From an uncultured Ruminococcus sp. (GTDB lineage Bacteria; Bacillota; Clostridia; Oscillospirales; Acutalibacteraceae), in contig CADASG010000004.1 of the NCBI GenBank assembly GCA_902790475.1, positions 4,373 through 68,372 of the forward strand: 64,000 bases of DNA, written 5' to 3'. How positions within the stretch are numbered: the stretch's first letter is position 1; each line of letters opens with the position of its first letter. Under the pieces are notes generated by a model, which saw nothing but the letters and a program-made list of their open reading frames with translations, was not told the DNA's origin and did not search any database. Made by a program: the position numbers and the translations under genes. This document shows positions 3,001 through 64,000 of the stretch, piece by piece.

Positions 3001-4384
3001 CGCTGAGAGAAGTGGTGTTATAAAAAGCGTGCTGATCGATCAACTTTACGCTTTTGGGAACGTCGATTTTTGTGATCGCGGAGCAGTCTTCAAATGCGTT
3101 GGACTCAATCGTTTTCAGATTGGATGGCAGGCTGACCTCGGTAAGGCTTTTACAATATTTGAACGCACGCTCGGAAAGAACGGTAACGCCCTCGGGGATC
3201 ACGACGCTTTCGACCGCAGTGTTCTGGAACAAGCCGCGCACGATAGTATCGGCGTTCTCGGATAAGTTGATTTTCTTGAGCCTTGTGCATTCATTAAAGG
3301 GAGAGTCGCCGCTCTTGACGGAGGCAGGCAGCGTCACTTCTGTGAGCGCGGTTTTCGCGAAGGAGTAGCTGCCGATGTTGACAAGCCCCTCGTTGAAGGT
3401 GGCGCTTGAAAGCCTTGTGCAGCCGGAAAAGGCGTCGTTGCCGATAGAGGTCACGTTAGAGGGAATAGTGATTTCCGTCAGTCTTGGGCAGTTTGTAAAG
3501 GCGCAGTAGGGGATAGCAGTCACGCCTTTTCCGATCGTCGCGCTTGAGAGGTTTGGACACTCGAACAGTACATAATCACCCATTTCGGTTACGCTGTCGG
3601 GAATCACGATTGACTCCAGCGCGCCCATCTGGGCAAGAGAATCCCTGCCGAGCTTGGTAACGGTGTCGGGGATAGTCAGCTCGCGAATGGAGTTGTTATC
3701 CTCAAACATATCGTTGGGGATAGCAGTGATGCCGTCGGCAAAGGTCACGGTTTCAAGCAGGTTAGCTTCGGCAAAAGCCTCGTTAGCCATGGTAACGGTT
3801 GACGGAATGTAGATTTCCGAAACAGGCGTGCCTGCCAAAAAACGGTTTCCCATAGTTTCAAGACCTTCATGCAGTGTGATATCTGTGAGAATCGGGCAGT
3901 TTCTAAAGGCTCTGTCATCGATCGTTTTCAAAGTTGACGGGATATCAACTGACTGCAGGGCTCTGCAGTTTTGAAAAGCGTCCTTGCCGATTGCGGTAAC
4001 GGTTGCGGAAAAGTTGACGTTTTCAAGCAGGTCGCAGCCCGAGAATGCTTCATCTCCGATCGTTGTGATGCCCTCGGAGAAGGTCACGCTCTCGATGTTG
4101 TCGTTGTTTTCAAATGCTTTGGAGCCGATTTCCGTAACACTGACGCCCGAAAGCGTTCCGGGGATGGTCACCTGCGACTGTGTTCCGCTGAAACTTGTGA
4201 TCCTCGCGGTGCCGTTGCCGAGAACCTCGTAGGTGTAGTCTCCGTCTGTGCGGACTTCCGCAGCGGAAGCTGCACCAAAGACATTTCCGATGATGACCAT
4301 ACTGAGAAGAATGGTCATTGCAAGCGTTACCGATATGGTTTTTTTCAGTAAGCTTTTTGCAGAGTAATGTTGTCGGTTTACCAT
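71..4384 (-). CDS. Large secreted BspA-type leucine-rich-repeat protein with carboxypeptidase-regulatory-like/Ig-like domains and C-terminal dockerin
   Basis: Signal peptide; about 25 LRR_5 repeats (xIPxSVxxIGxxAFxxC); IDPSGNVYEAV...GATAIIY module; terminal dockerin GDVTGDGKVTIDDATEIQKYLA...ADTYGDGIITIDDAT. ATG at 4384 follows AGGAGG (ORF track starts at TTG 4390). Confidence 0.85.
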   Translation of the reverse strand: MVNRQHYSAKSLLKKTISVTLAMTILLSMVIIGNVFGAASAAEVRTDGDYTYEVLGNGTARITSFSGTQSQVTIPGTLSGVSVTEIGSKAFENNDNIESVTFSEGITTIGDEAFSGCDLLENVNFSATVTAIGKDAFQNCRALQSVDIPSTLKTIDDRAFRNCPILTDITLHEGLETMGNRFLAGTPVSEIYIPSTVTMANEAFAEANLLETVTFADGITAIPNDMFEDNNSIRELTIPDTVTKLGRDSLAQMGALESIVIPDSVTEMGDYVLFECPNLSSATIGKGVTAIPYCAFTNCPRLTEITIPSNVTSIGNDAFSGCTRLSSATFNEGLVNIGSYSFAKTALTEVTLPASVKSGDSPFNECTRLKKINLSENADTIVRGLFQNTAVESVVIPEGVTVLSERAFKYCKSLTEVSLPSNLKTIESNAFEDCSAITKIDVPKSVKLIDQHAFYNTTSLSECTFREGLQTLGNNLFEGSALTSIYIPKTLSSTNSPLAGSNITDVTFSNGIGTLTDSLLRGAGKLTKVTIPDTVINIGKSCFRDSNIQSIVIPDNVKTIGSSAFEECNNLYAVKIGAGVRKLPQWCFYGCDVLQNVVIPETVRDMEPSVFENSGLSYQKLPQSIRYIPNSTFKDCKKLTTVECSDSLESIGDYAFERCANLTTLKTSAKDVEFNNTTFKDCPKFTDARFYVFNPANTGIESTGNIGTDHTLVHFTVKYDIRDDWKNDEIQMNRLYLSIPNNLDIVNNSFSAEGFNFNNAEYTGDYKNFDLTGGKPTGELRFSAYLNNTNDSISNFGAEVEFHHNGTYFRKPLGEVQFSTAKLSLFAPSKVTEKKITVSGYSASPDKDVTVYITRLNKDGSKGDAVSYTVSPNKYTGKYISEELNILPDGKNASKGDKFEVYAECSGARSDVVTFIYTPGALKVVEAIETVNIKKFLAPFTTNLSHQNQANTYDITGIFTKGTSPVVMINPAEMLQFKFRFENDENISNIVLMSHKGSEWRFMELFYDEGSDMWIGEGYFNISDHELVPGQSYVPGAFNLFYMTGERKDTYRSHYYGNKSNKENSPVGDPPKPYGDEEVFYYDADGKPHGDLGDYHETGRDTVINILIDIVKGDWTDAASEAVTGGLHTLWQWGNENDNFFSFTHGGVRLGPDGLPILPGDADMYNHNPEKDGKQRNAIDPSGNVYEAVKGNPVEGATAIIYKLNEDTGEWQEWNAADFEQQNPLLTNDEGAYAWFTDEGKFKVTVSKDGYEPQTSEVFEIPPEKLGLDFNLVDKTTHPTASVTKDEKTGNYTLKFSKFMIPDTVNTDTVKIEGLTDVSIVPVYISEGDEFADTFTISGKRQQKEIKVTVTDSAKSYSGVTAEKSSETVTESTIPGDVTGDGKVTIDDATEIQKYLADLTDFTPEQIEAADTYGDGIITIDDATMIQKLVAGMIDSF

Positions 4385-48064: not shown

Positions 48065-50968
48065 TTATCCCGCGTTTAGCCAGGTTCCGTTAGAGTATAT
48101 CGCGCTCAGGTAAGGAATGTTCACTAAATCCTGTTGTACCAGTTTAGTTGAGCCGTTCAGGAAGATACAGCAGTTATATTCCTTCGGACAGGTGTATTTG
48201 TAAATATTGCTTCCGTCGTTAGTCATCTGCGTTCCGGGCCAAGCGACCATACAATCGTTCGTTCCGTATTTCCACACATAAATACAGGGATTTGAAGCGT
48301 TGAAATAGTTGTTGTCAAGGTAGATCGTTCTGTAATTCGCGGGGTCTTCCTCAACGACGTTCACGTATTCTCCGCAGTGGTTTCCGCTTACCGTCATATG
48401 AGCGACAAACTTTTGAATGAGCGTTGCGTCAGATACACTGACCGAATTGCTGCTGTTGACGTCCGCGGCTTTCAGAGAGTCACCGGTAAGCGTTGTGATA
48501 GAGGAGCTGTGACGCTGGATCTCGGTGGCGTCTCTGATGTCGATAACGCCGTCAAGGTTTACGTCACCGATAAGTACACGCTGAGGAGCGGTAAAGCTGC
48601 TCCAATCCGTGAGGTTGGTGAGCATCATGTCGGAGCCGTTTATCTCAAGTCCTTTGGCGCCCGACGCAGGGTACTGCGACGAGCCGTTGTTGAAGATCGC
48701 CAGTCCGTTTTCCGCAAGCTCGTCGGGAACCTCATAAACGTAGTAGCCTGTTGAGTTATCGTACTCCATCGCCTCGCCCGGCCATGAGTGGTTGCATGTT
48801 ACGGGGCTTGTTGACTCGTCATAGACATAAACGTTAACGTTGCTCCAGTTGTAACGGGAGTTGTCAAAGTAGATCCTTGTTACCGCGGCAGGATCCTTCT
48901 TTTTGTAGGTGAAGGTTTTTTCAACGGTTTCCTCGGAGTTTGTCGCGGTCATAGTCACGTTAAAGGTCGTGCCTACCGCGATCCCGTCGCCGATCTCAAA
49001 TGTCTGACCGTTGACTACTCTGAACTGTGTTCCGCCGTTTATGCTGACCATCGCGTAGTCTGCTCCGCGCAGTGAAACGGTCACGGTCTGGCTGTCATAG
49101 AATGCAGGCTTGCCGCCTTTGAGCGACATTGAAATCGTGGGAACGGGTCCCGAAATCAGGATAACTCCCTGAGCACCCGAGTTAAAGGTCACTCTGCCGT
49201 TTTGAACCACAGCCGTTATGCCGTTATACTCGTTTGTCAAGGTCGCGCCGTTGTTGAATACAGAGGAAACATCAATCGTGATGTTGGTGTTTACGGGAGC
49301 GCCCACTGTGCATACAACGTTGTCGCAGGTCACGCCGTCGTCATAGGTTCTCGAGAAGGTGTAGCCTGTAGAGCTGTTGTAAGCTGAGATCTGATTGTGA
49401 GCGCCTGCGCCAACCGCAACGTGATTTGAGCGGAATTTGCCTACCTTCCGCCAGTGCTGAAGCACGCTTTGGTTGATGCTGCTCCAGTTCATGTCGCTTC
49501 TCAGCGAATGACCGCTGCCGCCGTTGCCGTCAAAGTCCATGTTGGATACAAGTCCGCGGTTCGTTTCGTCGCCGTAGAAGATCTGGACGCCGCCGGGCAG
49601 CAGCATCAGTGACGTACCCTGATAGTAAAGGTCGTTGCTTCTCGCGAGGTTTGAGTCGTGCGAGGAAATATAGGTGAGCATATTGAAGTCAAGGTCGGTG
49701 TTAATGCTGTTTGCGTAGTTCTGATAAATGCCGTTGAGACTGCTTACTCCGTCAATGCTTCTGCCTGAGAACGAGAAGTTGATCATCGAGTCAAAGCCGC
49801 CTGATGTAAAGTAGCCGTCCTTATTCAGACCGTGACCCCAGCTTTCGCCGGTCATCCAGAAGTCCTCATCCCAGTCCGCGCCGGGGGAGGTGGGGTGGTT
49901 TGTTCTCCATGTGTTGAGAGCGGTTACGCACTTGGTTTTGAGCTTGTTCCAGGAGGAAAGCTCAACGTGCTTTGCGGTGTCGCAGCGGAAGCCGTCAACG
50001 CCGTATTCCTCAACCCATTCCGAAAGCCATGTCGTGAGGTAGTCGGAAACGGTTCCCAAACCGTTGTACTTCGCCATTTTTTGGTTATAGGTTCCCTCGC
50101 TTTGCCATTTTGTTTTCAAAATCTGAGGGACAGAGACATTGGTCGTAGATTCGGTGCGGAAGTCGGGCAGGCTCGCAAGACACTGAGTCAGTTCGCTGCC
50201 GTTGTTTTCCGTATAGCCCGAAAGTCCCGCTCTTATCCAGTCGGGTCCCCACCATCTGCCCCAGGAGGTTGCAGATGAAGATGAATTGTAATCAATATAG
50301 CTGTTGATGCTGCCGACGTTGTTTATCCTGTACATATAGGATTCAGCCATAGTGCGGTTGCTGAAAGCTCCGTAGTTGTACTGGATCATGTCCTTGACGT
50401 TTGTATAGCCTGCGTGGTTCATAACAACGTCAAGAATAACGCGGATATTATGTGAGTGAGCAGTGTCTACCATGGTCTTGAACTCCTGCTTGGTGCCGAA
50501 GTTCGCGTCGGTCTCGGTGTAATCGAGCGCGTAGTAGCCGTGATATGCGTAGTGAGCGAAGCCTGCGCCCGAATCGACGTATCCGTGGATCTGCTCGTAG
50601 GGAGCGGAGATCCAAATCGCGTTGACGCCCAAATCGTCGAAGTAGTTTGCGTTGATCTTTTGGGTTATGCCCGCGAAGTCGCCGCCGTGGAAGGTACCGG
50701 GATTGGTGTCCCAGCCGCTGATAGGCGAGTTGTTTTGATCAAGGGCTCGTCCGTAGGAGTGGTCGTTTGAGCTGTTGCCGTTGTAAAAACGGTCAGTCAG
50801 CAGGAAATAAACATTCGCATTGTCCCACGAAAAATCATCGGGAGACTCAACGGTTCGTTCGGTTCCTACCGGCTCCGCCGCTTCTGCCGCTCCAGCAGTG
50901 AAGCCTGAAACTGACATTGAAGCGATCATAGCCAGACTCAGCGCGGCGGAGATAATTTTCTTTTTCAT
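48065..50968 (-). CDS. Secreted alpha-amylase (GH13, MalS-like) with CBM26-dockerin-CBM26 tail
   Basis: Signal peptide; GFRCDTAKHVE, MTGESWG, ISSHD catalytic triad; RIYFDNS..NWS.V.VY.Y and TIYLDN...C.YVW CBM26-like units flanking dockerin GDVNLDGVIDIRDAT. Confidence 0.9.
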   Translation of the reverse strand: MKKKIISAALSLAMIASMSVSGFTAGAAEAAEPVGTERTVESPDDFSWDNANVYFLLTDRFYNGNSSNDHSYGRALDQNNSPISGWDTNPGTFHGGDFAGITQKINANYFDDLGVNAIWISAPYEQIHGYVDSGAGFAHYAYHGYYALDYTETDANFGTKQEFKTMVDTAHSHNIRVILDVVMNHAGYTNVKDMIQYNYGAFSNRTMAESYMYRINNVGSINSYIDYNSSSSATSWGRWWGPDWIRAGLSGYTENNGSELTQCLASLPDFRTESTTNVSVPQILKTKWQSEGTYNQKMAKYNGLGTVSDYLTTWLSEWVEEYGVDGFRCDTAKHVELSSWNKLKTKCVTALNTWRTNHPTSPGADWDEDFWMTGESWGHGLNKDGYFTSGGFDSMINFSFSGRSIDGVSSLNGIYQNYANSINTDLDFNMLTYISSHDSNLARSNDLYYQGTSLMLLPGGVQIFYGDETNRGLVSNMDFDGNGGSGHSLRSDMNWSSINQSVLQHWRKVGKFRSNHVAVGAGAHNQISAYNSSTGYTFSRTYDDGVTCDNVVCTVGAPVNTNITIDVSSVFNNGATLTNEYNGITAVVQNGRVTFNSGAQGVILISGPVPTISMSLKGGKPAFYDSQTVTVSLRGADYAMVSINGGTQFRVVNGQTFEIGDGIAVGTTFNVTMTATNSEETVEKTFTYKKKDPAAVTRIYFDNSRYNWSNVNVYVYDESTSPVTCNHSWPGEAMEYDNSTGYYVYEVPDELAENGLAIFNNGSSQYPASGAKGLEINGSDMMLTNLTDWSSFTAPQRVLIGDVNLDGVIDIRDATEIQRHSSSITTLTGDSLKAADVNSSNSVSVSDATLIQKFVAHMTVSGNHCGEYVNVVEEDPANYRTIYLDNNYFNASNPCIYVWKYGTNDCMVAWPGTQMTNDGSNIYKYTCPKEYNCCIFLNGSTKLVQQDLVNIPYLSAIYSNGTWLNAG

Positions 50969-51115
50969 TTGAATCATCCTTTCATAAATTATTGCGGTTT
51001 TTTACGGGTTGCGCCGTACCCATTGAGTGCATTTTGATTCATAATAATTATAACATAAATTCACCGAAATTTCAATACAAAATTGTTTTGTTTTGTTGAT
51101 ATTCGGTATCAATAT

Positions 51116-55234: not shown

Positions 55235-56905
55235 TCACTTTTTGTTTTTCAGTTTCGTGACTGCGAGGGCGGTCACTCCGCCGACTGCCGCTATTACTGC
55301 CAGACTTTTTACTATGGCTTTTCTTACGAAGGGCACGTTATAGTCAAGCGTGGAGTAGGAGGGATTGATCATGTAGGGAAGCAGCGGCATAAGGAGCTTG
55401 CGGCTGCGGCTTAGAATATCATGCTCGATATGCGGCTGCTTGGAAAGAACCATTGAAGCGCGGCTTTGTGACTGATAAGGTTCCCAGTCCAAGCCTTTTG
55501 CGGCAGGCTTGCCGCTGCGCGCAAAGCTTGTCCACAGCTCCATGACTGTATCGGACAGCGCTTCGTCGGCAGGCTGACCCGTATAAAGAGTTTCTTCTGT
55601 ATTTCCGAAAACATATGCGAGCTCCACCGCGTGACACGCCTTGCGCAGTGGAAGTGCGGATTGGACAGTCCAGTAGTACATATAAACGCTGCCGCCGTTT
55701 TCAGAATGTCCCTCTGCCTGAGCAACGGCAGGAAGGCGGAACATCATTTCGTTATAAAACTGCGCCATCTTCCACATGCTGTGTCCGCTCATGCTTCTGA
55801 AAAAGAGCTCCACGCGCATTTTTCCGCTCTTGTTCAGCACCTTCATGTCGTTTTCAAATTTTACCGGGATACTGAAACGGAAAGGAACCAAGCCGCCGAT
55901 CTCACCTATCCAATAGTTCATCTCGTCCGAGTTTGTGCCTATCAAAATATCAATGTCGGATGTTTCTCCGTTTCTATACGGAAGGTATGGGTCGAAGGGG
56001 ATCAAACGCCCGTCGCGCTGCGGAAAGTTGTTGTATTCATTGAGCTTTTCATTGAGCGTCATAAGCTCGCTTTCGCTCAGCGCCAGTAAATCATCAACAG
56101 CTTTGGCTCGGCTTGCGCGTATCAAGCGCCGTGTGAACTCCTTGCACTCATCCTTTGAAAAGGTCAGGGCAACAGAGCCGCTTTGTGCGATAATTCGGCG
56201 AAACAGTCCCTTTGCTTTCGGAATAACAGGCAAAAGCGAAACGCTGCCGCCTCCTGCCGATTCACCGAAAACAGTGACGTTGTAAGGGTTACCGCCGAAA
56301 TTCGCGATATTTTGTTGTATCCACCGCAGGGCTTCGATCTGGTCAAGCAGACCGAGGTTCGGAGCGTCGGGATAATTTTCTCCTCCCTTTAGGTATGAGA
56401 GATCGGTAAAGCCCATCAAGCCGATTCGGTAGGCGACCGTGACCAGAATAATATCAGGGTGCTTTTCGACAAGGTTTTTGCCGTCGTACATCGGGTCGGC
56501 AGTGCCGCCCCAGCCGTATGAGCCGCCGTGAAAAAATACCATCACGGGTTTGTCGGCGGTTTTATCGTCGGCACTGTGCCAAATGTTAAGGTAAAGGCAG
56601 TCCTCACCCTGCGGATAGTATGACGCCTGCTCGGTTTTCCATTCGGTTTGAATTGGAGATTTTCCGTTGTAGTAAGCTTCAAACACCCTGTCGTCGGGCA
56701 AAACCGGCTCGGGAGCCTTCCACCTGAGTTTTCCTACAGGCGGCTTTGCAAAGGGTATCCCTCGGAATACCAAGGTATTTCCCGAGCGGGCTCCTACAAA
56801 GGTTCCGTTTACGCATTTCGCGGAAAGCTCTTTGTCATAATCTTCGGTTATTACGCGGTTTTCACCGTAGCTGCTGCGAATAGCAGCTATTGCTTCTGAT
56901 GTCAT
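55235..56905 (-). CDS. Type-B carboxylesterase (p-nitrobenzyl esterase-like) with C-terminal hydrophobic tail
   Basis: FRGIPFAKPP, EDCLYLNIW, HGGSY, FGESAG nucleophile, GTNSDE, CHAVEL. Confidence 0.92.
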   Translation of the reverse strand: MTSEAIAAIRSSYGENRVITEDYDKELSAKCVNGTFVGARSGNTLVFRGIPFAKPPVGKLRWKAPEPVLPDDRVFEAYYNGKSPIQTEWKTEQASYYPQGEDCLYLNIWHSADDKTADKPVMVFFHGGSYGWGGTADPMYDGKNLVEKHPDIILVTVAYRIGLMGFTDLSYLKGGENYPDAPNLGLLDQIEALRWIQQNIANFGGNPYNVTVFGESAGGGSVSLLPVIPKAKGLFRRIIAQSGSVALTFSKDECKEFTRRLIRASRAKAVDDLLALSESELMTLNEKLNEYNNFPQRDGRLIPFDPYLPYRNGETSDIDILIGTNSDEMNYWIGEIGGLVPFRFSIPVKFENDMKVLNKSGKMRVELFFRSMSGHSMWKMAQFYNEMMFRLPAVAQAEGHSENGGSVYMYYWTVQSALPLRKACHAVELAYVFGNTEETLYTGQPADEALSDTVMELWTSFARSGKPAAKGLDWEPYQSQSRASMVLSKQPHIEHDILSRSRKLLMPLLPYMINPSYSTLDYNVPFVRKAIVKSLAVIAAVGGVTALAVTKLKNKK

Positions 56906-56925: not shown

Positions 56926-58695
56926 CTATATTGTAATGGTAATGTTGTTTAATTCCATCGTGCTGAGATACTTGATATCCTTTGCCATTCCGCACACCAT
57001 ACGGATACCGATGTTGCGTGTCTTGTCCTCGTTCTCGTGGAGCTTCAGCCACTCTGTGGGGTCAAATTTGGGACAGTTATCTCTCATTCTCAGCATCCAT
57101 CCGCTGTCAAGACGGATCACGCGCACGTCGATACTGCGCTTTTTGTTACCGTCAAAGCCGAACTGAATGATGTTGTTGCTCAGTTCCTCAACGAACAGTG
57201 ACAGCATCATGCTTTCCTTGGGAGTCGCGCCCTTTTCTTCACAGAATTCTCCCACCGTGGAGGAAGCCGTCACCACGTCTTCTGCCTTTGTTATTGAAAA
57301 GTCAAGCAGATCATCCTCGGAAACACCGAACGGTTCTTTGAGGAATAAATAATTTTTTGCGCAAAAAGGTATACCGCGTTTTTTAACCGCTGCCATGATA
57401 ATGATCAGAATAAGGTTAAGCGACTCGCCGATCAGGAATGACCACCATACTGCGTCGGTATCAAGCACGCCGAACAGTGCAAGAGCAGGGATCACTATAA
57501 ACGGAAAGTTTACAAGGAAACAGATGACGTCTGACATAACCATTCGTCTCATTCCCTGCGTATAGTTGATAAAGGCGACGTTCAGACCGTACACAATGAT
57601 ACTGAGCGCGTAGATTCGCAAGCCTCTTGAAGCAAGCTCGACCATCTTTGCGCCGTCCGCAGAGCCGAATGCGCCAGCGATGGGGGCGGCAAATATCAGC
57701 AATATCGCACTGAGGATACCGCCGACTACAAGCGTAGTCCTGATCGTAACTTTAATCAGCGATTCGGCGGCTGTTCTGTCCTGCTCGCCCAGGATCATTC
57801 CGGCTATCATCGCAGTAGTCATGGCGACGCCGAGCATTGTTGATGAAGTGAAGTTGAACACTGTATTGACTACACCGAGAGCCGCCACAGCCGTACTTGA
57901 CAGCACGGAAGCAACCATGATCTGATTCAGTACCGTGTTGCGCAGCATGGAGGAAGCGGAACCGATCGCTGAGGAGGAGCCGATCGCGAAAATCTCTCCC
58001 AGATCCTTCATTCTTAATCCCTTGAATGAGAATTTGAAAATAATATCCTTTTTTGTGAAATGCAGCAGCATGATCACCAGGGCTGCAAAATAGCTCAGCG
58101 AGGTGGTGAGTCCAATGCCGAGCATACCGCCGTGGATCACCAGAGCGTTCACAAGGTCTCCGGCGATATCCAAAAGGGTCATCACCACGACTGCGACGAT
58201 CACGCGGTTCGGGTCTCCGTCAAGGCGCATGAGCGAATTGAACTCAAACAACAGCAGAACGCAGGGAAAGGAAAAAACCATACCGAGCAGGTAATCGGAG
58301 GTGGGGGCGAGAAGATGAGCGGAATTGCCTCTTGCGCCGAGCAGCACTCCGATCGGTTCTCTGAACACCAGCACTCCTGCCATCATAACCGCCGAGATAA
58401 CTGCCGTAGCGATCATGCACATCGAAAACGCGCGCCTTGCTTTTTGCTTGCTGCCTGCTCCGAGGTGCTGCGCACAGATGATCTGAGCGCCCGTTGCCAG
58501 AATTCCGCTGAAAGCGGTGGCAAGGTTGATGATAGGAGTGACCAATCCGTATGCCGCCATGCTGTCGGGACCGAGAAAACGGCCGATAACAATACCGTCG
58601 ATCACAATGCCGATCATTGTGGCGACCGCCGCCAGAATGATACTGATCACGGAATTGCGGAAAAGTCTGCTTATAATTTTTCCGTTATTCTTCAT
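56926..58695 (-). CDS. MATE efflux transporter fused to C-terminal RsbW-like HATPase domain
   Basis: IDGIVIGRFLG...AAYGL, 12-TM MATE pattern; C-terminus EELSNNIIQFG...RMRDNCPKFDP...NIGIRMV. Confidence 0.85.
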   Translation of the reverse strand: MKNNGKIISRLFRNSVISIILAAVATMIGIVIDGIVIGRFLGPDSMAAYGLVTPIINLATAFSGILATGAQIICAQHLGAGSKQKARRAFSMCMIATAVISAVMMAGVLVFREPIGVLLGARGNSAHLLAPTSDYLLGMVFSFPCVLLLFEFNSLMRLDGDPNRVIVAVVVMTLLDIAGDLVNALVIHGGMLGIGLTTSLSYFAALVIMLLHFTKKDIIFKFSFKGLRMKDLGEIFAIGSSSAIGSASSMLRNTVLNQIMVASVLSSTAVAALGVVNTVFNFTSSTMLGVAMTTAMIAGMILGEQDRTAAESLIKVTIRTTLVVGGILSAILLIFAAPIAGAFGSADGAKMVELASRGLRIYALSIIVYGLNVAFINYTQGMRRMVMSDVICFLVNFPFIVIPALALFGVLDTDAVWWSFLIGESLNLILIIIMAAVKKRGIPFCAKNYLFLKEPFGVSEDDLLDFSITKAEDVVTASSTVGEFCEEKGATPKESMMLSLFVEELSNNIIQFGFDGNKKRSIDVRVIRLDSGWMLRMRDNCPKFDPTEWLKLHENEDKTRNIGIRMVCGMAKDIKYLSTMELNNITITI

Positions 58696-58727
58696 GGAAT
58701 CGTCCTCCATAGGTTCGGGATACTGAA

Positions 58728-58853
58728 GGCAACACCGCACAATTCAAGGCGCACGGCTTGCTTGAATCTTATTCCGTCAGCTTGCCCAAAAAATCTCGGC
58801 AAGGCGACAGCCTTACCTCAATTTTCCGCACACCTGAATTATGCGGTATTGCC
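58728..58853. mobile_element. 126-bp MITE-like element with 19-bp TIRs and 4-bp TSD
   Basis: TIRs GGCAACACCGCACAATTCA / TGAATTATGCGGTATTGCC (17/19); flanked by TGAA at 58724-58727 and 58854-58857; 97-bp identical copy at 6527. Confidence 0.85.
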
Positions 58854-58877: not shown

Positions 58878-59729
58878 TCAATCCTTATTGTTGTTGCCTG
58901 CGATGGTTATGATCAAGTCAAGCACCTTGAGGTACAGCCACAAAATCGTAAAGGAAAGTCCGAACGCCGCCTGCCACTCATATTTTTTCGGCAGCTTGTC
59001 GTTTACAACATGGTCGATCGTGTCAAAATCGCAAATAAGGAAAAGAGCTGCAATGATGATAAATCCAATCGAAGCGGCAATTGAGAGTGCAAAATTGTTT
59101 TGTATCGTCTTAACAAGCGGCTGAACAGCCGGAATAAACGATCCGATAAAGGTAAATAGGGAAGTAGCGATCATGGTGACAAACAGAGTTGTGATCACCA
59201 TTTTGAATTTCTTTGTGACACGGACCACTCCCGTTGTGTAAAGGATCGACATAACGGCAATGATCAGCATGGTGATAAGCAGCGCCAGAAAACCGAGGTA
59301 TTCCAGCTTATATGCGCCCAGAACCTTGAACAGCAAAAAAGAAATGAAGTAGCCTTGGCTCGCGCAGTACAGCGCGCCGGTCACCGGGGTCGTGGAGCGT
59401 AAGAAGAAAGCGAGCAGCTGCAGTAAGATACCGGCTAACAGCACCGCTAATAAAACGATTATTTCGGCGTTAGTGACCGAAACCTTGAAGCCTTTGATGT
59501 TAAGAACGGATGACTCGCCTTCTGCGAGCATCTTTGCCGTGATCGCCTGAGCTAAAATACCTACTGCGCTGAACAGCAGAAAGAACATGGTTTTAAGTGT
59601 GATTCCTCCGTAGGTTGCGCAGTTTGAATCGGCATGTTCATCAACGTTATCAAGCCTGCGCATTATCGGGTTGGATGAAAGAAACGATCGTTTGGTTTTT
59701 TGTTTCGTATTGCTTTGCAGTCTGTTCAT
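58878..59729 (-). CDS. Bax inhibitor-1/YccA family membrane protein
   Basis: SSNP..., T..GI..KT..LL, L..DFD.I...V....PKKYEW.AAFGL..T.LWLYL..L. Confidence 0.85.
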   Translation of the reverse strand: MNRLQSNTKQKTKRSFLSSNPIMRRLDNVDEHADSNCATYGGITLKTMFFLLFSAVGILAQAITAKMLAEGESSVLNIKGFKVSVTNAEIIVLLAVLLAGILLQLLAFFLRSTTPVTGALYCASQGYFISFLLFKVLGAYKLEYLGFLALLITMLIIAVMSILYTTGVVRVTKKFKMVITTLFVTMIATSLFTFIGSFIPAVQPLVKTIQNNFALSIAASIGFIIIAALFLICDFDTIDHVVNDKLPKKYEWQAAFGLSFTILWLYLKVLDLIITIAGNNNKD

Positions 59730-59822: not shown

Positions 59823-62813
59823 TTATTTTTTCCTTGAAAATACGCCCTTGACGGTTTCAAAGAAATTGCGTTTGCTGTTGTATTTTTTGCGCAGCTCGGC
59901 GATGGTTACATCTGTTTGAGAATTGTGAGTAACTAAGCCCTGAGCCGTTTTTACGAAAATATCCTTGAAGCGTTCCATGCTCTCGTCCTCATAGAGGCTT
60001 GCGGTGTAGTCGATCATAAGCACCAGACCTTCGGCACCGTCGAGGATCTCCATGTCGAGGACTGTCTGCGACGCAGCCTGATTCTGACGGATGTCTATGG
60101 TCTCTATGTCCATTTCCTCAAGACCGCCCATGTCGCGAATATCCTGCTGATAGAGAAGATAAGCCGCCTCGCTGCTGCCGACGCGGTTGTGGATATCTAC
60201 ATAGGGGTAGCAGCTGTGCTCAATGCCCTTCTGTACCTGATCATGAACGTCCGCAAACAGCTCGCGCAGAGTCATCTCGTCTTTAAGCCGCACTCCTACG
60301 GGAAGCTCGCGGAACAGCAGACCGACTGAGTTCATAGCGGTCAGATCTTCGCGGCCGTTGTATATCCAGCACAGCTTAATGTCGTTCTTTTTGTTGTAGA
60401 TCGAAATGGAGAGAGCGGCGACAGCGATAAAGAACTCGTTGCGGCTGATTTTGTAATGCCGTTCCATCGCCTTCATCTGCGGCTGCTCGATACCGATCGG
60501 CGCGAACAGCTCGCCCATCTCGTTTTCGCGCGATTCGTGGTCGGTTTCGGGATAACTTGACCACTCCACTCCGTCAAGACGGTTTTCAAAATACTGTCTG
60601 CTTTCCTCGTAAAATTCGGTCTGAGTCTCGTTCTCGCGGTTTTGCAGTATCAAATAATACAGATCGGGGTCGGGCTGCATCCCCATGTACGCCTTTCCCA
60701 CGTTTTGCATAAACACCTTTAGCGAGGTGCCGTCAAAAATCGTGTGGTGAACGTCAAAGAAAATATAGCCGTGTTTTTCGGTTTCAAAGACGCGGCAGCG
60801 GTGCAGACAGCCTCCGATGATCTTAAACGGCCGCACCAGCGCGTCCTTGATATCGGCAAACTCGAACTCGCTGATTTTCTCTACACGGATATCGCTCAGC
60901 ACCTCGGGGGTGTACCGCTGGATGATATCTCCGTCCTGATTGAAATGAAAGGTCGTAAGCAGCGCCGAGTGGTTGCGGATCGCGGTGCGCATCGCGTCAG
61001 CCATTTTCTGCATATCGAATCTTTCCTTGTCGATACGCATCATGGTAAAGAGGTTATACATCGTTGATTTCGGGGTATAGAGCTGATAGTCAACCATGTA
61101 AAGCTGCTCAACCGTCAGCGGATGATCGGTCTCCATTGCGCGTGCGTTTTTTATTTCGGGCGATTCTCCGTCGTCGGAGAGGTTTTTCTCATACAGCTCC
61201 GCGATCTTCTTCGGTGTTCTTCCGCGGAATATCTCGCTTGCATTCAGTCCGGGCAGACCGCTTTCGGTGATAACGCGAATGGAACCGAGAGAATCTCCGC
61301 CAAGCTCATAGAAATCGTCGTTGATACCGAACTGCTCCAGCTTCAAAACGGCAGCCATTGCGTCGCATAGCTTTTGCTGTATCTCGTTCTCGGGAGCGGC
61401 ATAATCGGTTTTGAAATCGGAAGCGTCGGGCTTAGGCAGTGCTTTCCTGTCCATTTTGCCGTTTCTGTTTAGAGGTACCTTGTCGATCTTGATATAGTAA
61501 GACGGTATCATATAGTAGGGCAGACGCTTTGAAAGCGACTCGCGCAGTTGATCACTGTCTACTTCTATGTCAGCGGTGTAGTAAGCGCAGAGGAAGCTCT
61601 TTCCGTTTTCCTCAAAGCCGCGCGCCGCTACCCAGTCAACTCCGAGCACCTGTTTTACGGAGGCTTCTATCTCGGCAGGTTCAATGCGGTTGCCGTTGAT
61701 CTTTATCATATCGCCTGAGCGTCCGAGAAGCACATAGTTGCCGTTTTCGTCAATGCGCGCCAGATCGCCGGTGCGGTACATGCCGCCGCCAAACGCCCTT
61801 TCGGTCTCCTCGGGGAGATTGATATATCCGCGCACAAACGGGTTTTCAAAGCAAAGCTCGCCGATCTCGCCGTTCTGTGCTTCCTCACCGTCCTCGTTTA
61901 TCAGGCTGATTTTTGTTTCTATTTCGGGCTTTCCGATAGGACAGGTCTCGTATGGCTTGTCGATTTTATACACTCCCACGGCAAAGCCGCTTTCGCTTGC
62001 TGCATAGATATTTATGAGGTCAACGTTTTTCAGATAAACATTATTCGCAGGTTCGCTTCCCACAAAAAGCATTCTCAAAAAAGGACCTGTTTGGTTTCCG
62101 AGCATACGCACATAGGAAGGTGTTAGGAAGGTGATCGTGATTCGCTTTTCAACAAAAAACATTTTCAGCGACATGGGATTTTTGATCGTAGCGTAGCTGA
62201 CAATAAAGATTTTGCCGCAGCAGATGCTCAGCGCTTCCAGAATGACGATAACGGAAGCCACAAAATTCATGGGAGCGAGCAGCGCAAGTCTGTCCTTTCC
62301 GTTAAAGGGATTTTCTCCGTTGAGCCTCACCGATTTGATGGCTCTTTCGATATTGCCGTATTCATGAAGCACGCCCTTTGGATTTCCCGTGGTACCCGAG
62401 GTATATATGGCATAAGCTGCGTCATGTTCGTCTGCGAGCCAGTAACCTTTTATGGCTGTGGTCGCCATGATTTTCTCCCAGTTGGCGGCGCTCAGCTCTT
62501 CCTTGCAGCCGCAGTCCTTTCGTATGTATTCAATACGTTCGGGAGCGTATGTATCCTCAACCAGCGCCCATGCCGCGCCCGCTTTCCATACTCCGATCAT
62601 AGCGATGACCGGCATAACTCCGCGCGGCAGGTTTATGAGAACAAAGTCCTCTTTGCCTATCCCTTTATTGCTCAGATATGCGTAGACCCTTCCGCTGAGC
62701 TCGTCAAGCTGAGCGTAAGTGATACCCTTGGTGTGGGCTTCGTCAAAAAGGATCGCCGCGTTAGGCTTTTCCTTGGAGTACCGGTCAAGCAATTCGAGAA
62801 TATTCATAATCAC
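59823..62813 (-). CDS. Stand-alone NRPS-like protein: adenylation - carrier (T) - condensation
   Basis: A3 YTSGTTGNPKG, YRTGD, GRSGDMIKINGNRIE, A10 NGKMDR; T domain DDFYELGGDSL; C domain HHTIFDG; no TE or R domain. Confidence 0.92.
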   Translation of the reverse strand: MIMNILELLDRYSKEKPNAAILFDEAHTKGITYAQLDELSGRVYAYLSNKGIGKEDFVLINLPRGVMPVIAMIGVWKAGAAWALVEDTYAPERIEYIRKDCGCKEELSAANWEKIMATTAIKGYWLADEHDAAYAIYTSGTTGNPKGVLHEYGNIERAIKSVRLNGENPFNGKDRLALLAPMNFVASVIVILEALSICCGKIFIVSYATIKNPMSLKMFFVEKRITITFLTPSYVRMLGNQTGPFLRMLFVGSEPANNVYLKNVDLINIYAASESGFAVGVYKIDKPYETCPIGKPEIETKISLINEDGEEAQNGEIGELCFENPFVRGYINLPEETERAFGGGMYRTGDLARIDENGNYVLLGRSGDMIKINGNRIEPAEIEASVKQVLGVDWVAARGFEENGKSFLCAYYTADIEVDSDQLRESLSKRLPYYMIPSYYIKIDKVPLNRNGKMDRKALPKPDASDFKTDYAAPENEIQQKLCDAMAAVLKLEQFGINDDFYELGGDSLGSIRVITESGLPGLNASEIFRGRTPKKIAELYEKNLSDDGESPEIKNARAMETDHPLTVEQLYMVDYQLYTPKSTMYNLFTMMRIDKERFDMQKMADAMRTAIRNHSALLTTFHFNQDGDIIQRYTPEVLSDIRVEKISEFEFADIKDALVRPFKIIGGCLHRCRVFETEKHGYIFFDVHHTIFDGTSLKVFMQNVGKAYMGMQPDPDLYYLILQNRENETQTEFYEESRQYFENRLDGVEWSSYPETDHESRENEMGELFAPIGIEQPQMKAMERHYKISRNEFFIAVAALSISIYNKKNDIKLCWIYNGREDLTAMNSVGLLFRELPVGVRLKDEMTLRELFADVHDQVQKGIEHSCYPYVDIHNRVGSSEAAYLLYQQDIRDMGGLEEMDIETIDIRQNQAASQTVLDMEILDGAEGLVLMIDYTASLYEDESMERFKDIFVKTAQGLVTHNSQTDVTIAELRKKYNSKRNFFETVKGVFSRKK

Positions 62814-63115
62814 TCACCTTTATTGTAAGTCAGTATTTCATCAAAACCCGTCACCTCAAACACATCGGTGACGACCTCGCTGACGTTGATCAGCCGCATC
62901 TCGCCCTGATTCATCATCACCTTTTGCAGCGACAGCAGAACCCTGAGTCCTGCGGAAGAAACGTAATTGACGTCTTTAAAGTCCAGCACCAGCTTTGTGA
63001 TCCCGTCTAAATTGGGCTTAACACCTGCTTCCAGCTCAGGCGCAGTAACGGTGTCTATCCGTCCGCTGATCGTAACATTCAGTTTGTTTCCCTCTTTTTT
63101 TCTTTTGATATTCAT
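62810..63115 (-). CDS. STAS anti-anti-sigma factor (RsbV/SpoIIAA-like)
   Basis: GRIDTVTAPELE, LDFKDVNYVSSAGLRVLL (phospho-Ser), VFEVTGF. Confidence 0.92.
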   Translation of the reverse strand: MNIKRKKEGNKLNVTISGRIDTVTAPELEAGVKPNLDGITKLVLDFKDVNYVSSAGLRVLLSLQKVMMNQGEMRLINVSEVVTDVFEVTGFDEILTYNKGE

Positions 63116-63549
63116 TTCCTGTTCTCCTTTGCCTTTGTTTTTTCAATGTTTTTCTTTATTTTTAAAATATTTTTTCCGTCCTTGTAGGTGTACTCAACCA
63201 TCGTCATGGTTTTCTTTACGAGGAAGATCCCCAGACCGCCTTCTTTTCGTTCCTGCGCCGAAAGCTTTATGTCGGGTTCAGCCTGTTCCAGCGGATTAAA
63301 GGGCTTTCCGTTGTCAATAAAGGATATCACGACCGCGAGAGGGGATTCCTCCACTTCAAAGCAGACGGTCGCTTTTCCGACGTCGGGACTGTAGGCGTAC
63401 CGGGCGATATTACCGAACAGCTCGTCGATCGCGATAGTTATCTGGATCTGAGCCTTCAAAGGGCAGTCAAGCCGTTCCAGCTCCGCCGTGATAAAATCCG
63501 TTACAGGTTCAATGTTTTCCACTGCCGCTTCAATAGTTAATTCTTTCAT
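63112..63549 (-). CDS. RsbW/SpoIIAB-like serine kinase (anti-sigma factor fold)
   Basis: AIDELFGNIARYAY, IDNGKPFNP, GGLGIFLV. Confidence 0.9.
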   Translation of the reverse strand: MKELTIEAAVENIEPVTDFITAELERLDCPLKAQIQITIAIDELFGNIARYAYSPDVGKATVCFEVEESPLAVVISFIDNGKPFNPLEQAEPDIKLSAQERKEGGLGIFLVKKTMTMVEYTYKDGKNILKIKKNIEKTKAKENRK

Positions 63550-64000
63550 ATCTCTTTACCTCTGTAATGAATACACAACATTGTCAAATCGTCAAACTGC
63601 GGCTGATCCTGAACAAACCTTTGAACGTCCGCGGAAACCGCTTCAAGAAGCTGCTGCGGCGCTGCGTCCTTGTTTTTGTTCAGCGTTGCGAGAAACCTGT
63701 TGTAGCCGTACTGTGACTGCGACCTGTCCTCCGCTTCGGGAACGCCGTCGGTATACACGAAGATTTTTGTTCCGGGTTCAAGCGTGGTCTGTGTTTCCCT
63801 GTAGCTTATCCCTTTGATCCCTCCGACTACAAAGCTGTGCTTGCTTTTATGAAGCTCAAAATCTCCGCCGGCGGTTTTTATGATCGGATATTCGTGACCC
63901 GCGTTAGCGGTTGTCAGGGTACCGTCGCTCAAATCGAGAATCCCCAGCCATACGGTGACAAACATCTCCTGCTGGTTATTCTCGCAAATCTGATTGTTAA
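63546..64000 (-). CDS. PP2C/SpoIIE (RsbU-like) phosphatase, 5' part outside the window
   Basis: EMFVTVWLG, ANAGHE, YTDGVPEA, QFDDLTML; the frame stays open to the window edge (NNQICENNQQEMF). Confidence 0.9.
   Translation of the reverse strand, partial: NNQICENNQQEMFVTVWLGILDLSDGTLTTANAGHEYPIIKTAGGDFELHKSKHSFVVGGIKGISYRETQTTLEPGTKIFVYTDGVPEAEDRSQSQYGYNRFLATLNKNKDAAPQQLLEAVSADVQRFVQDQPQFDDLTMLCIHYRGKEI

Follow-up and report, generated by a model that had tools for sequence, protein, structure and literature searches.

A 64,000-nucleotide stretch of the genome of an uncultured Ruminococcus sp. (GenBank assembly GCA_902790475.1, contig CADASG010000004.1, forward-strand positions 4,373 to 68,372; hereafter "the window," numbered from its first letter) carries on its minus strand, at 59823..62813, a gene for a protein of the nonribosomal peptide synthetase (NRPS) type that consists of an adenylation (A), a thiolation (T) and a condensation (C) domain. 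This A-T-C synthetase is probably an "activate-carry-condense" enzyme that makes a small acylated amide or ester and not a peptide. In the mechanism that we propose, the A domain would adenylate a hydrophobic carboxylic acid without an alpha-amino group (an alpha-keto, alpha-hydroxy, aryl-alkanoic, short or branched fatty acid), the T domain would take over the adenylated acid as a thioester at Ser508, and the HHxxxDG condensation domain would pass the acyl group to an amine or hydroxyl of a small molecule not bound to a carrier, so that the product would be a single amide or ester and no peptide. A tail-anchored carboxylesterase would belong to the same pathway, where it might cleave an ester to release acid or acceptor, or else de-acylate the product, and in many genomes a switch made of a STAS protein, an RsbW-like kinase and a PP2C phosphatase, together with a MATE exporter, would be linked to the synthetase-esterase pair.

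The synthetase and its adenylation domain

The open reading frame (ORF) encodes 996 amino acids (aa) from a GTG and its translation is free of stops; the start is likely to be the ATG at 62807, two codons inside the GTG, which gives 994 aa, and the database clusters of the synthetase are likewise 994 aa long. This ATG follows the stop codon of the upstream STAS gene by 2 nt, with an AGGTGA ribosome site within the last codons of that gene. Pfam recognizes AMP-binding (residues 11-328, E = 1.8e-48), AMP-binding_C (381-453), PP-binding (480-517) and Condensation (561-969) in the protein, which ends after the C domain; it finds no thioesterase, reductase or ketoreductase domain. The A domain (residues 3-470; 61404..62807, minus strand, as for all features below) contains motifs A3 (YTSGTTGNPKG), A7 (YRTGDL), A8 (GRSGDMIKINGNRIE) and A10 (NGKMDR), the lysine of the last (Lys453, 61455..61457) being the counterpart of GrsA Lys517 by alignment and translation; with these core motifs present and conserved, it belongs to the NRPS A domains of the ANL superfamily. 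The T domain lies at 61179..61376, with GGDSLG at 61284-61301 and its phosphopantetheine serine, Ser508, at 61290-61292, and the C domain at 59907..61133, with a canonical HHTIFDG at 60729-60749 (all motif coordinates were verified by translation). With all three domains intact, the protein is predicted to be a self-contained, one-module NRPS-like acyl-transfer enzyme.

What sets the A domain apart are two of its motifs. A4 reads NFVASV (62250..62267), with Val185 (62259-62261) at the position of GrsA Asp235, and A5 reads NIYAASE (61992..62012), Ala-Ala-Ser replacing the Gly-Pro-Thr of the canonical NxYGPTE; the HMMER alignment to LgrA places "mnFVaSv" over "fsFDgSa" and "NiYAaSE" over "NgYGPTE." The domain therefore has neither the Asp235 within an FDxS A4 nor the NxYGPTE A5 by which alpha-amino-acid A domains are recognized, and the synthetase scores 220.8 bits against TIGR01733, below the cut-off of 317.4. 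No aspartate lies within 10 residues of the A4 site that a realignment might bring to position 235. A MAFFT alignment with GrsA-PheA gives the 10-residue specificity code VAIFFGIFAK; the GrsA-PheA sequence used as reference yields the canonical DAWTIAAICK, which validates the anchor of the alignment. An earlier reading of these letters, made without database searches (the sequence-only reading), had reported both A4 and A5 motifs, an intact T-domain serine and HHxxxDG, and, by eye, the pocket V-A-I-F-F-G-I-F-A-K: the motifs were confirmed by the LgrA and GrsA alignments and by translation, the serine and histidine motifs were found as GGDSLG and HHTIFDG, and the computed code is identical to the one read by eye.

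Both deviations have published parallels. The codes of A domains for aliphatic and aromatic alpha-keto acids begin with Val (PMC5238615), and keto-acid A domains have a hydrophobic residue in place of Asp235 (PMC13643306). In StsA, the sole keto-acid A-domain structure, the aspartate is replaced by Ile and the A5 proline by Met; the StsA M415P mutant is inactive, LgrA P483M/A acquires keto-acid activity, and enzymes that adenylate keto acids or other non-amino acids show this joint loss of aspartate and proline (PMC11253843). The synthetase carries both marks, Val185 and an A5 alanine. Both deviations recur in 33 orthologues (70-85% identity). Of the A4 residues, N183, F184 and A186 do not vary at all, and conservation of V185 is 90% or more; the A3, A8 and A10 cores, the A7 aspartate, Ser508 and H689/H690/D694/G695 are all invariant; an orthologue at 52% identity has Ile at the Val185 position and NFYLMSE as its A5 (Met for Pro). 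Thus, the A4 and A5 deviations are a trait of the family and not decay, and the joint conservation of catalytic motifs and odd residues indicates an A-T-C enzyme under purifying selection.

The relatives of the A domain point in the same direction. Its identity is 52.6% with the first A domain (A1) of P0171, a 2999-aa A-T-C-A-T-C-A-T-R enzyme (R, reductase), and 37% with the A1 of a 2002-aa A-T-C-A-T-R enzyme encoded in the same genome outside the window (C40:139-6147), but falls to about 30% with the amino-acid A domains that follow in these two enzymes. In the C40 enzyme, A1 is likewise without Asp235 (TFVASV) and without the A5 proline (SYGQTES), and the second A domain has the canonical form; an N-acyl amino aldehyde is the probable product. 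Enzymes of the A-T-C-A-T-C-A-T-R type, about 3000 aa long, are also encoded in the genus, and in their module 1 position 235 is Ala or Ile. In a maximum-likelihood tree of A domains, the A-T-C family groups with five of the seven first-module A domains that lack the aspartate (clade support 97/86), and within this clade it is sister to P0171_A1 (100/100); all Asp-bearing A domains sit in a separate clade (96/93). Among multimodular relatives, A domains without both the aspartate and the proline occupy the first module in seven of eight cases and an internal one in none of 24 (Fisher p = 2.4e-6). A unit without an alpha-amine can act only as a donor, so that the start of the chain is the only position open to it, and confinement to first modules is what would be expected if such domains load non-amino acids; the A-T-C protein, too, uses its load only as a donor. 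This first-module rule may also serve as an annotation aid for the NRPSs of gut Clostridia.

That the donor would be an acid without an alpha-amine is well supported by these motifs and relationships. Since the pocket residues Ile, Phe, Phe, Ile and Phe are bulky, a short, branched or flat aromatic acid would fit better than a long fatty acid, and the pocket is probably shallow or flat. The sequence-only reading had taken the loss of Asp235 as the mark of a non-amino-acid A domain; the published marks and the Asp-less clade bear this out, but the mark is not absolute, since a review reports in vitro activation of L-Phe by McyG, which has Val here (PMC11253843), and the loss of Asp235 is therefore no absolute proof against amino acids. 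It is to that extent conceivable, if unlikely, that Val185 does not keep the A domain from activating an amino acid, in which case the product would be dipeptide-like or an amide or ester of an aminoacyl group, and a hydrophobic, Phe-rich pocket could indeed take the side chains of Phe, Leu or Ile. The physiological starter of McyG is, however, a phenylpropanoid and not Phe. The first-module confinement of Asp-less relatives speaks against an amino-acid load, and here the aspartate and the A5 proline are both gone, as in non-amino-acid enzymes (PMC11253843).

Orthologues of the synthetase occur in 36 of 101 species genomes of the source genus (52-85% identity); in 120 further genera of its family none was found. 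With each prokaryotic species represented by one genome, a scan gave 435 relatives, and our analyses of loci rest on the best 80 of these (70-85% identity). Nearly all of these 80 are metagenome-assembled genomes (MAGs) and isolates from the rumen or ruminant gut (RUG series; goat, sheep, deer, yak, buffalo). The listed relatives include Ruminococcus sp. JE7B6 and JL13D9 and Ruminococcaceae bacterium P7, and a few are labelled Lachnospiraceae (isolate AC2029, 73%), Bacilli or Erysipelotrichaceae (70-75% orthologues at loci L095-L098, L105, L108, L132 and L136, that of AC2029 included). Such orthologues in records with other labels, combined with the absence from 120 genera of the family, suggest that the gene may have spread horizontally among rumen Firmicutes, although the MAG labels are perhaps unreliable. 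A search of 1.84 billion representative proteins, in which giant multimodular NRPSs swamp the match list because scores add up over repeats, returned two full-length representatives of the family, P0123 (68%) and P0232 (48%), and no distant characterized relative; judged by this search, the family is narrow. It is uncharacterized, common in rumen bacteria and, as it appears, specific to the rumen and ruminant gut.

The condensation domain and its proposed acceptor

The C domain is remote in sequence from all that it was compared with: its best PDB matches are TycC and LgrA (E ~1e-12), and it is about 24% identical to the C domains of related synthetases; NCBIfam, applied to the C domain alone, gave weak AusA and generic matches and no subtype. 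More can be learned from the company that it keeps. In 11 of 16 genomes with the gene, four of these 11 being 100% complete, the C domain of the synthetase is the only PF00668 match. In one 100% complete genome (G125), there are two PP-binding matches, the T domain of the synthetase and an ORF of about 100 aa that we take to be the fatty-acid acyl carrier protein (ACP). Each of eight genomes checked has one phosphopantetheinyl transferase ORF (200-234 aa), and the homology scan of the 80 related loci found no NRPS gene. With no other condensation domain in several complete genomes, and in one of them no other carrier beyond the putative fatty-acid ACP, an acceptor bound to the carrier of a second NRPS is excluded there, and without an aminoacyl carrier partner the acceptor should be free or at least not carrier-bound; the remaining options are water, or two subunits acting on each other.

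Free acceptors have precedents: they are used by the C domain of VibH (PMC10510592) and by those of the fatty acid amide (FAA) pathway (PMC13310621), and TybD, an A-PCP-C protein (PCP, peptidyl carrier protein), O-acylates a free nucleotide-like metabolite in the account that PMC13235161 gives of it. By exclusion and by these precedents, the terminal C domain of the synthetase may hand its acyl group to a diffusible nucleophile, giving an amide or an ester.

The esterase partner, the neighbouring genes and alternative readings

The window contains a type-B carboxylesterase gene (55235..56905) whose product is PnbA-like, with a GESAG motif and a hydrophobic C-terminal tail, and has 1c7i as its best PDB match (E = 4e-72). 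In 62 of the 72 related loci with enough flank (86%), a carboxylesterase gene lies directly downstream of the synthetase gene, and in 45 of these 62 the stop and start codons overlap by 4 or 1 nt; GESAG is kept in 59 of 63 of the carboxylesterases of related loci and the hydrophobic tail in 53 of 63. Because the esterase is translationally coupled in 86% of the loci, the synthetase is one half of a pair with a hydrolase and no isolated ligase; the conserved functional unit, as gene order has it, would be synthetase plus carboxylesterase. The sequence-only reading had noted that there was no thioesterase or reductase, which holds in cis but overlooks this coupled hydrolase. Its proposal of a one-step acyl ligase is the best available, withstood all tests made here and is partly supported, the donor half well and the acceptor half by exclusion and precedent, yet it is incomplete, as the esterase partner was missed.

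The synthetase itself ends in a conserved, basic, amphipathic-looking tail (59826..59906, ...NFFETVKGVFSRKK); its pattern, FFxxhxxhFRRKK, closes the orthologues down to 70% identity, and it may form an amphipathic membrane-binding helix. Upstream are a STAS anti-sigma-factor-antagonist gene (62810..63115; Pfam STAS, 5.7e-16; TIGR00377, 79.9 bits over a cut-off of 53.45), an RsbW-like kinase gene (63112..63549; HATPase_c_2, 1.1e-19) and a SpoIIE-type PP2C phosphatase gene (63546..64000; SpoIIE, 6.8e-33) cut by the window end, so that the full partner-switching set stands beside the synthetase. On the contig, the phosphatase continues to approximately window coordinate 65132 (about 528 aa in full) and has a hydrophobic N-terminal membrane segment, so that it may be a sensor phosphatase bound to the membrane; the gene upstream of it encodes a membrane protein of 236 aa. 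The STAS gene lies directly upstream of the synthetase in 49 of 76 related loci, and RsbW-like kinase or PP2C genes are present in 16 of the 33 loci whose flanks measure 5 kb or more on both sides.

Between synthetase and esterase the window has a BaxI_1 membrane protein (58878..59729) and a MATE exporter with a C-terminal, anti-sigma-kinase-like HATPase_c_2 domain (56926..58740; Pfam E = 4.7e-09), orthologues of which (69-81%) occur beside STAS and synthetase genes in 7 of the 33 loci with long flanks. The order in the window is thus PP2C, kinase, STAS, A-T-C, BaxI, MATE-kinase fusion, esterase; as synthetase and esterase abut or overlap in 86% of loci elsewhere, their separation here by two genes indicates a local rearrangement in this genome. 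Farther away, at 48065-50977, is a gene for a 970-aa secreted amylase-like protein with a dockerin-like repeat (DVNLDGVIDIRD...) near its C-terminal third, which, read by eye, is in keeping with an R. bromii-type Ruminococcus that degrades starch.

Several observations weigh against the free-acceptor acylation proposed above. In 10 of the 72 loci there is no adjacent carboxylesterase, and the copy in the window is 3 kb off; the carboxylesterase could itself be the releasing catalyst, with the C domain in some other role. The sequence of the C domain gives no positive sign of a free-acceptor site; its likeness to ordinary peptide-forming C domains is weak, and of the C domains in related synthetases an internal C2 is slightly nearer to it than the acyl-accepting C1. 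The AlphaFold2 model built on the 33-sequence alignment (mean predicted local distance difference test, pLDDT, 66.5; predicted TM-score, pTM, 0.44; C-terminal half of the C domain below 50) is too poor in its C domain for inspection, and Foldseek returned LgrA and GrsA as its top PDB matches, the same likeness to LgrA A-PCP-C as seen in the sequence. Finally, we infer the substrate class, the acceptor and the bond type alike.

The pairing of synthetase and esterase would also suit a cycle of "write" and "erase," in which the synthetase marks a non-diffusible target, whether a protein (the serine conserved in the adjacent STAS protein, for instance) or a component of the cell envelope such as a membrane lipid or polymer, and the esterase removes the mark. 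Two enzymes of opposite chemistry are translationally coupled, the C-terminal features of both suggest membrane association, the STAS gene is so often immediately upstream (2 nt from the synthetase start in the window), and some loci have STAS, synthetase and esterase without a kinase or phosphatase in the 8-10 kb on each side. To our knowledge, however, there is no precedent for an NRPS C domain that acylates a protein side chain; about one-third of the loci have no STAS gene within 8 kb and still keep the esterase; and the STAS protein scores as an ordinary anti-sigma antagonist, which, with kinase and phosphatase genes often beside it, is more likely to be regulated by phosphorylation than to be a substrate. 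We consider this cycle improbable, about on a par with an amino-acid donor. A further version of it, which seems to us slightly less probable still, would have the STAS/kinase/PP2C module gate the synthetase directly, and not a sigma factor, in a cycle of acylation and de-acylation on a non-diffusible target in place of a secreted metabolite: the donor would be a des-amino acid typical of the rumen, such as phenylacetate, 3-phenylpropionate or a branched-chain volatile fatty acid, the acid would be attached to the STAS protein or a cell-envelope component, and the esterase would erase the mark. These acids are long-known and mechanistically unexplained growth factors of rumen ruminococci.

Equally doubtful is a synthetase with no external acceptor, whose C domain would hydrolyze or cyclize the thioester or link two hydroxy acids, each bound to a carrier of a dimer, by an ester bond, perhaps with release by the esterase. 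A carboxylesterase gene is indeed nearby, a hydroxy acid is compatible with the missing Asp235 (PMC11253843), and fungal terminal C domains release their products by intramolecular attack (PMC10510592). Those domains, however, carry SHxxxDx (PMC10510592), against the canonical HHTIFDG of the synthetase; a single acyl unit without a nucleophile is unable to cyclize, and spending ATP and a 450-aa domain merely to re-hydrolyze the acid would be senseless.

Less probable again is an initiation module acting in trans, the C domain condensing its acyl group with the aminoacyl carrier of another synthetase such as the C40 enzyme. AmbB with AmbE and ergot LPS2 with LPS1 are examples of such condensation, the 2002-aa A-T-C-A-T-R synthetase is in the same genome, the A domain is kin to the starter modules of enzymes of that type, and the C domain has a canonical HHxxxDG and its likeness to peptide-forming C domains. 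Yet the genome census rules out a partner NRPS in trans, with no second condensation domain in the 11 genomes, no carrier in G125 beyond the synthetase and the putative fatty-acid ACP, and no NRPS gene at the related loci; in addition, the C40 enzyme has an Asp-less starter module of its own. A decayed, non-functional remnant of a larger synthetase, suggested by the resemblance of the layout to a first module plus C domain of an A-T-C-A-T-R enzyme and by the non-canonical A4 and A5, is scarcely credible, as it is already contradicted by the open frames of about 995 aa in the 80 loci, whose catalytic motifs, non-canonical A4 and A5 residues and operon partners are all conserved.

Known systems: likenesses and differences

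One-module A-T-C enzymes that acylate free acceptors are already known, though few are characterized. What is unusual about the present family is its number (435 relatives among species-representative genomes), its 70-85% identity across differently labelled families, and its company: a membrane-tailed carboxylesterase almost always coupled to the synthetase, and often a STAS/kinase/phosphatase switch and an exporter. If the free-acceptor acylation that we favor is correct, the family would define a class of small acylated molecules (or of acyl marks) so far unexplored, made by abundant starch- and fibre-associated rumen Firmicutes, and would offer a simple two-gene system for product discovery.

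In its A domain the synthetase resembles two groups of enzymes. With the keto-acid A domains (StsA/CesA, PksJ, PyrG), compared by motif residues, it shares the hydrophobic residue at 235, the lost A5 proline (Met in StsA and in the 52% orthologue, Ala here) and Gly at code position 6, whereas positions 2-5 of the code differ (VGMWN vs. VAIFF, written from position 1); in the StsA/CesA type, moreover, a ketoreductase with a pseudo-Asub follows, and the synthetase has none. With the starters of reductase-terminated Clostridial NRPSs the kinship is one of descent, the A domain being nested in their Asp-less clade, but the synthetase has neither a second module nor a reductase, and its neighbors are an esterase and a STAS protein where theirs are further NRPS parts; AusA is the best NCBIfam match of the whole synthetase, far below the model cut-off. 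These NRPSs, of A-T-C-A-T-R or A-T-C-A-T-C-A-T-R layout, belong to AusA-like and N-acyl peptide aldehyde pathways, which reportedly include those to gut dipeptide aldehydes (Guo et al. 2017) and the Ruminococcus bromii rup cluster (Schneider and Balskus 2018).

Among enzymes with free acceptors, the fungal FmqC/Af12050 has the same A-T-C layout, activates L-Ala and acylates a free metabolite. VibH is a lone C domain that takes its donor from an aryl carrier protein and uses a free small molecule as acceptor (PMC10510592). Neither of the two is known to be paired with an esterase or a STAS protein. Fungal terminal C domains (CT), which release by macrocyclization, have SHxxxDx (PMC10510592) and thus differ from the synthetase with its HHTIFDG.

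The FAA pathway of gut Clostridia consists of a stand-alone A domain, an ACP, a C domain and a hydrolase (Chang et al. 2021; OaaC structure, PMC13310621; ebf/ecf, PMC10871352). The likeness, which would be one of logic, is that a des-amino acid is adenylated, loaded on a carrier and passed by the C domain to a free amine, in both cases in anaerobic gut Firmicutes, and the synthetase-esterase pair recalls the hydrolase in FAA clusters (PMC10871352). The FAA proteins are separate, however, whereas the synthetase fuses A, T and C in one 996-aa polypeptide; their C motif is (D/H)HxxxD(S/A) in place of HHTIFDG, with Gly at that place in just 17% of FAA C domains (PMC13310621); and their pockets accept C12-C18 acids, whereas that of the synthetase is lined by Ile, three Phe and Ile. 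Lachnospiraceae isolate AC2029 has an FAA-type cluster (L147:3817-8372; a lone C domain with DHRLIDS, a 79-aa ACP, a 506-aa A protein and a 356-aa alpha/beta hydrolase) and also bears an A-T-C orthologue. The C domain of this cluster shows no similarity to that of the synthetase (BLAST E = 0.3), the A domains share 24% identity, and in the A-domain tree the FAA domain is a long outgroup. On the strength of the C-domain dissimilarity, the motif and the fused layout, membership in the FAA family was rejected. OaaC (PDB 12KH) was not among the PDB sequence matches of the C domain, the presence of 12KH in the searched copy being uncertain.

The closest functional precedent, likened by architecture and description, would be TybD of Lactobacillus iners, from the tyrocitabine cluster (Patel et al. 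2022, as related in PMC13235161). Like the synthetase, which stands alone without a partner NRPS, TybD is a lone Firmicute A-PCP-C protein, and as far as the account in PMC13235161 goes, its C domain acylates free hydroxyls of a small molecule, and its system includes an exporter and later deacylating esterases, as there are exporter and esterase genes at the synthetase locus too. By the same account, the tyb cluster builds its acceptor (TybB, TybC, TybE), whereas no acceptor-building genes are found among the recurrent neighbors of the synthetase; and, unlike the TybD system, the esterase here is the cell's own, tail-anchored and encoded beside the synthetase. Even so, synthetase and esterase together recall the logic of tyrocitabine acylation and esterase action as it is proposed in that source (PMC13235161).

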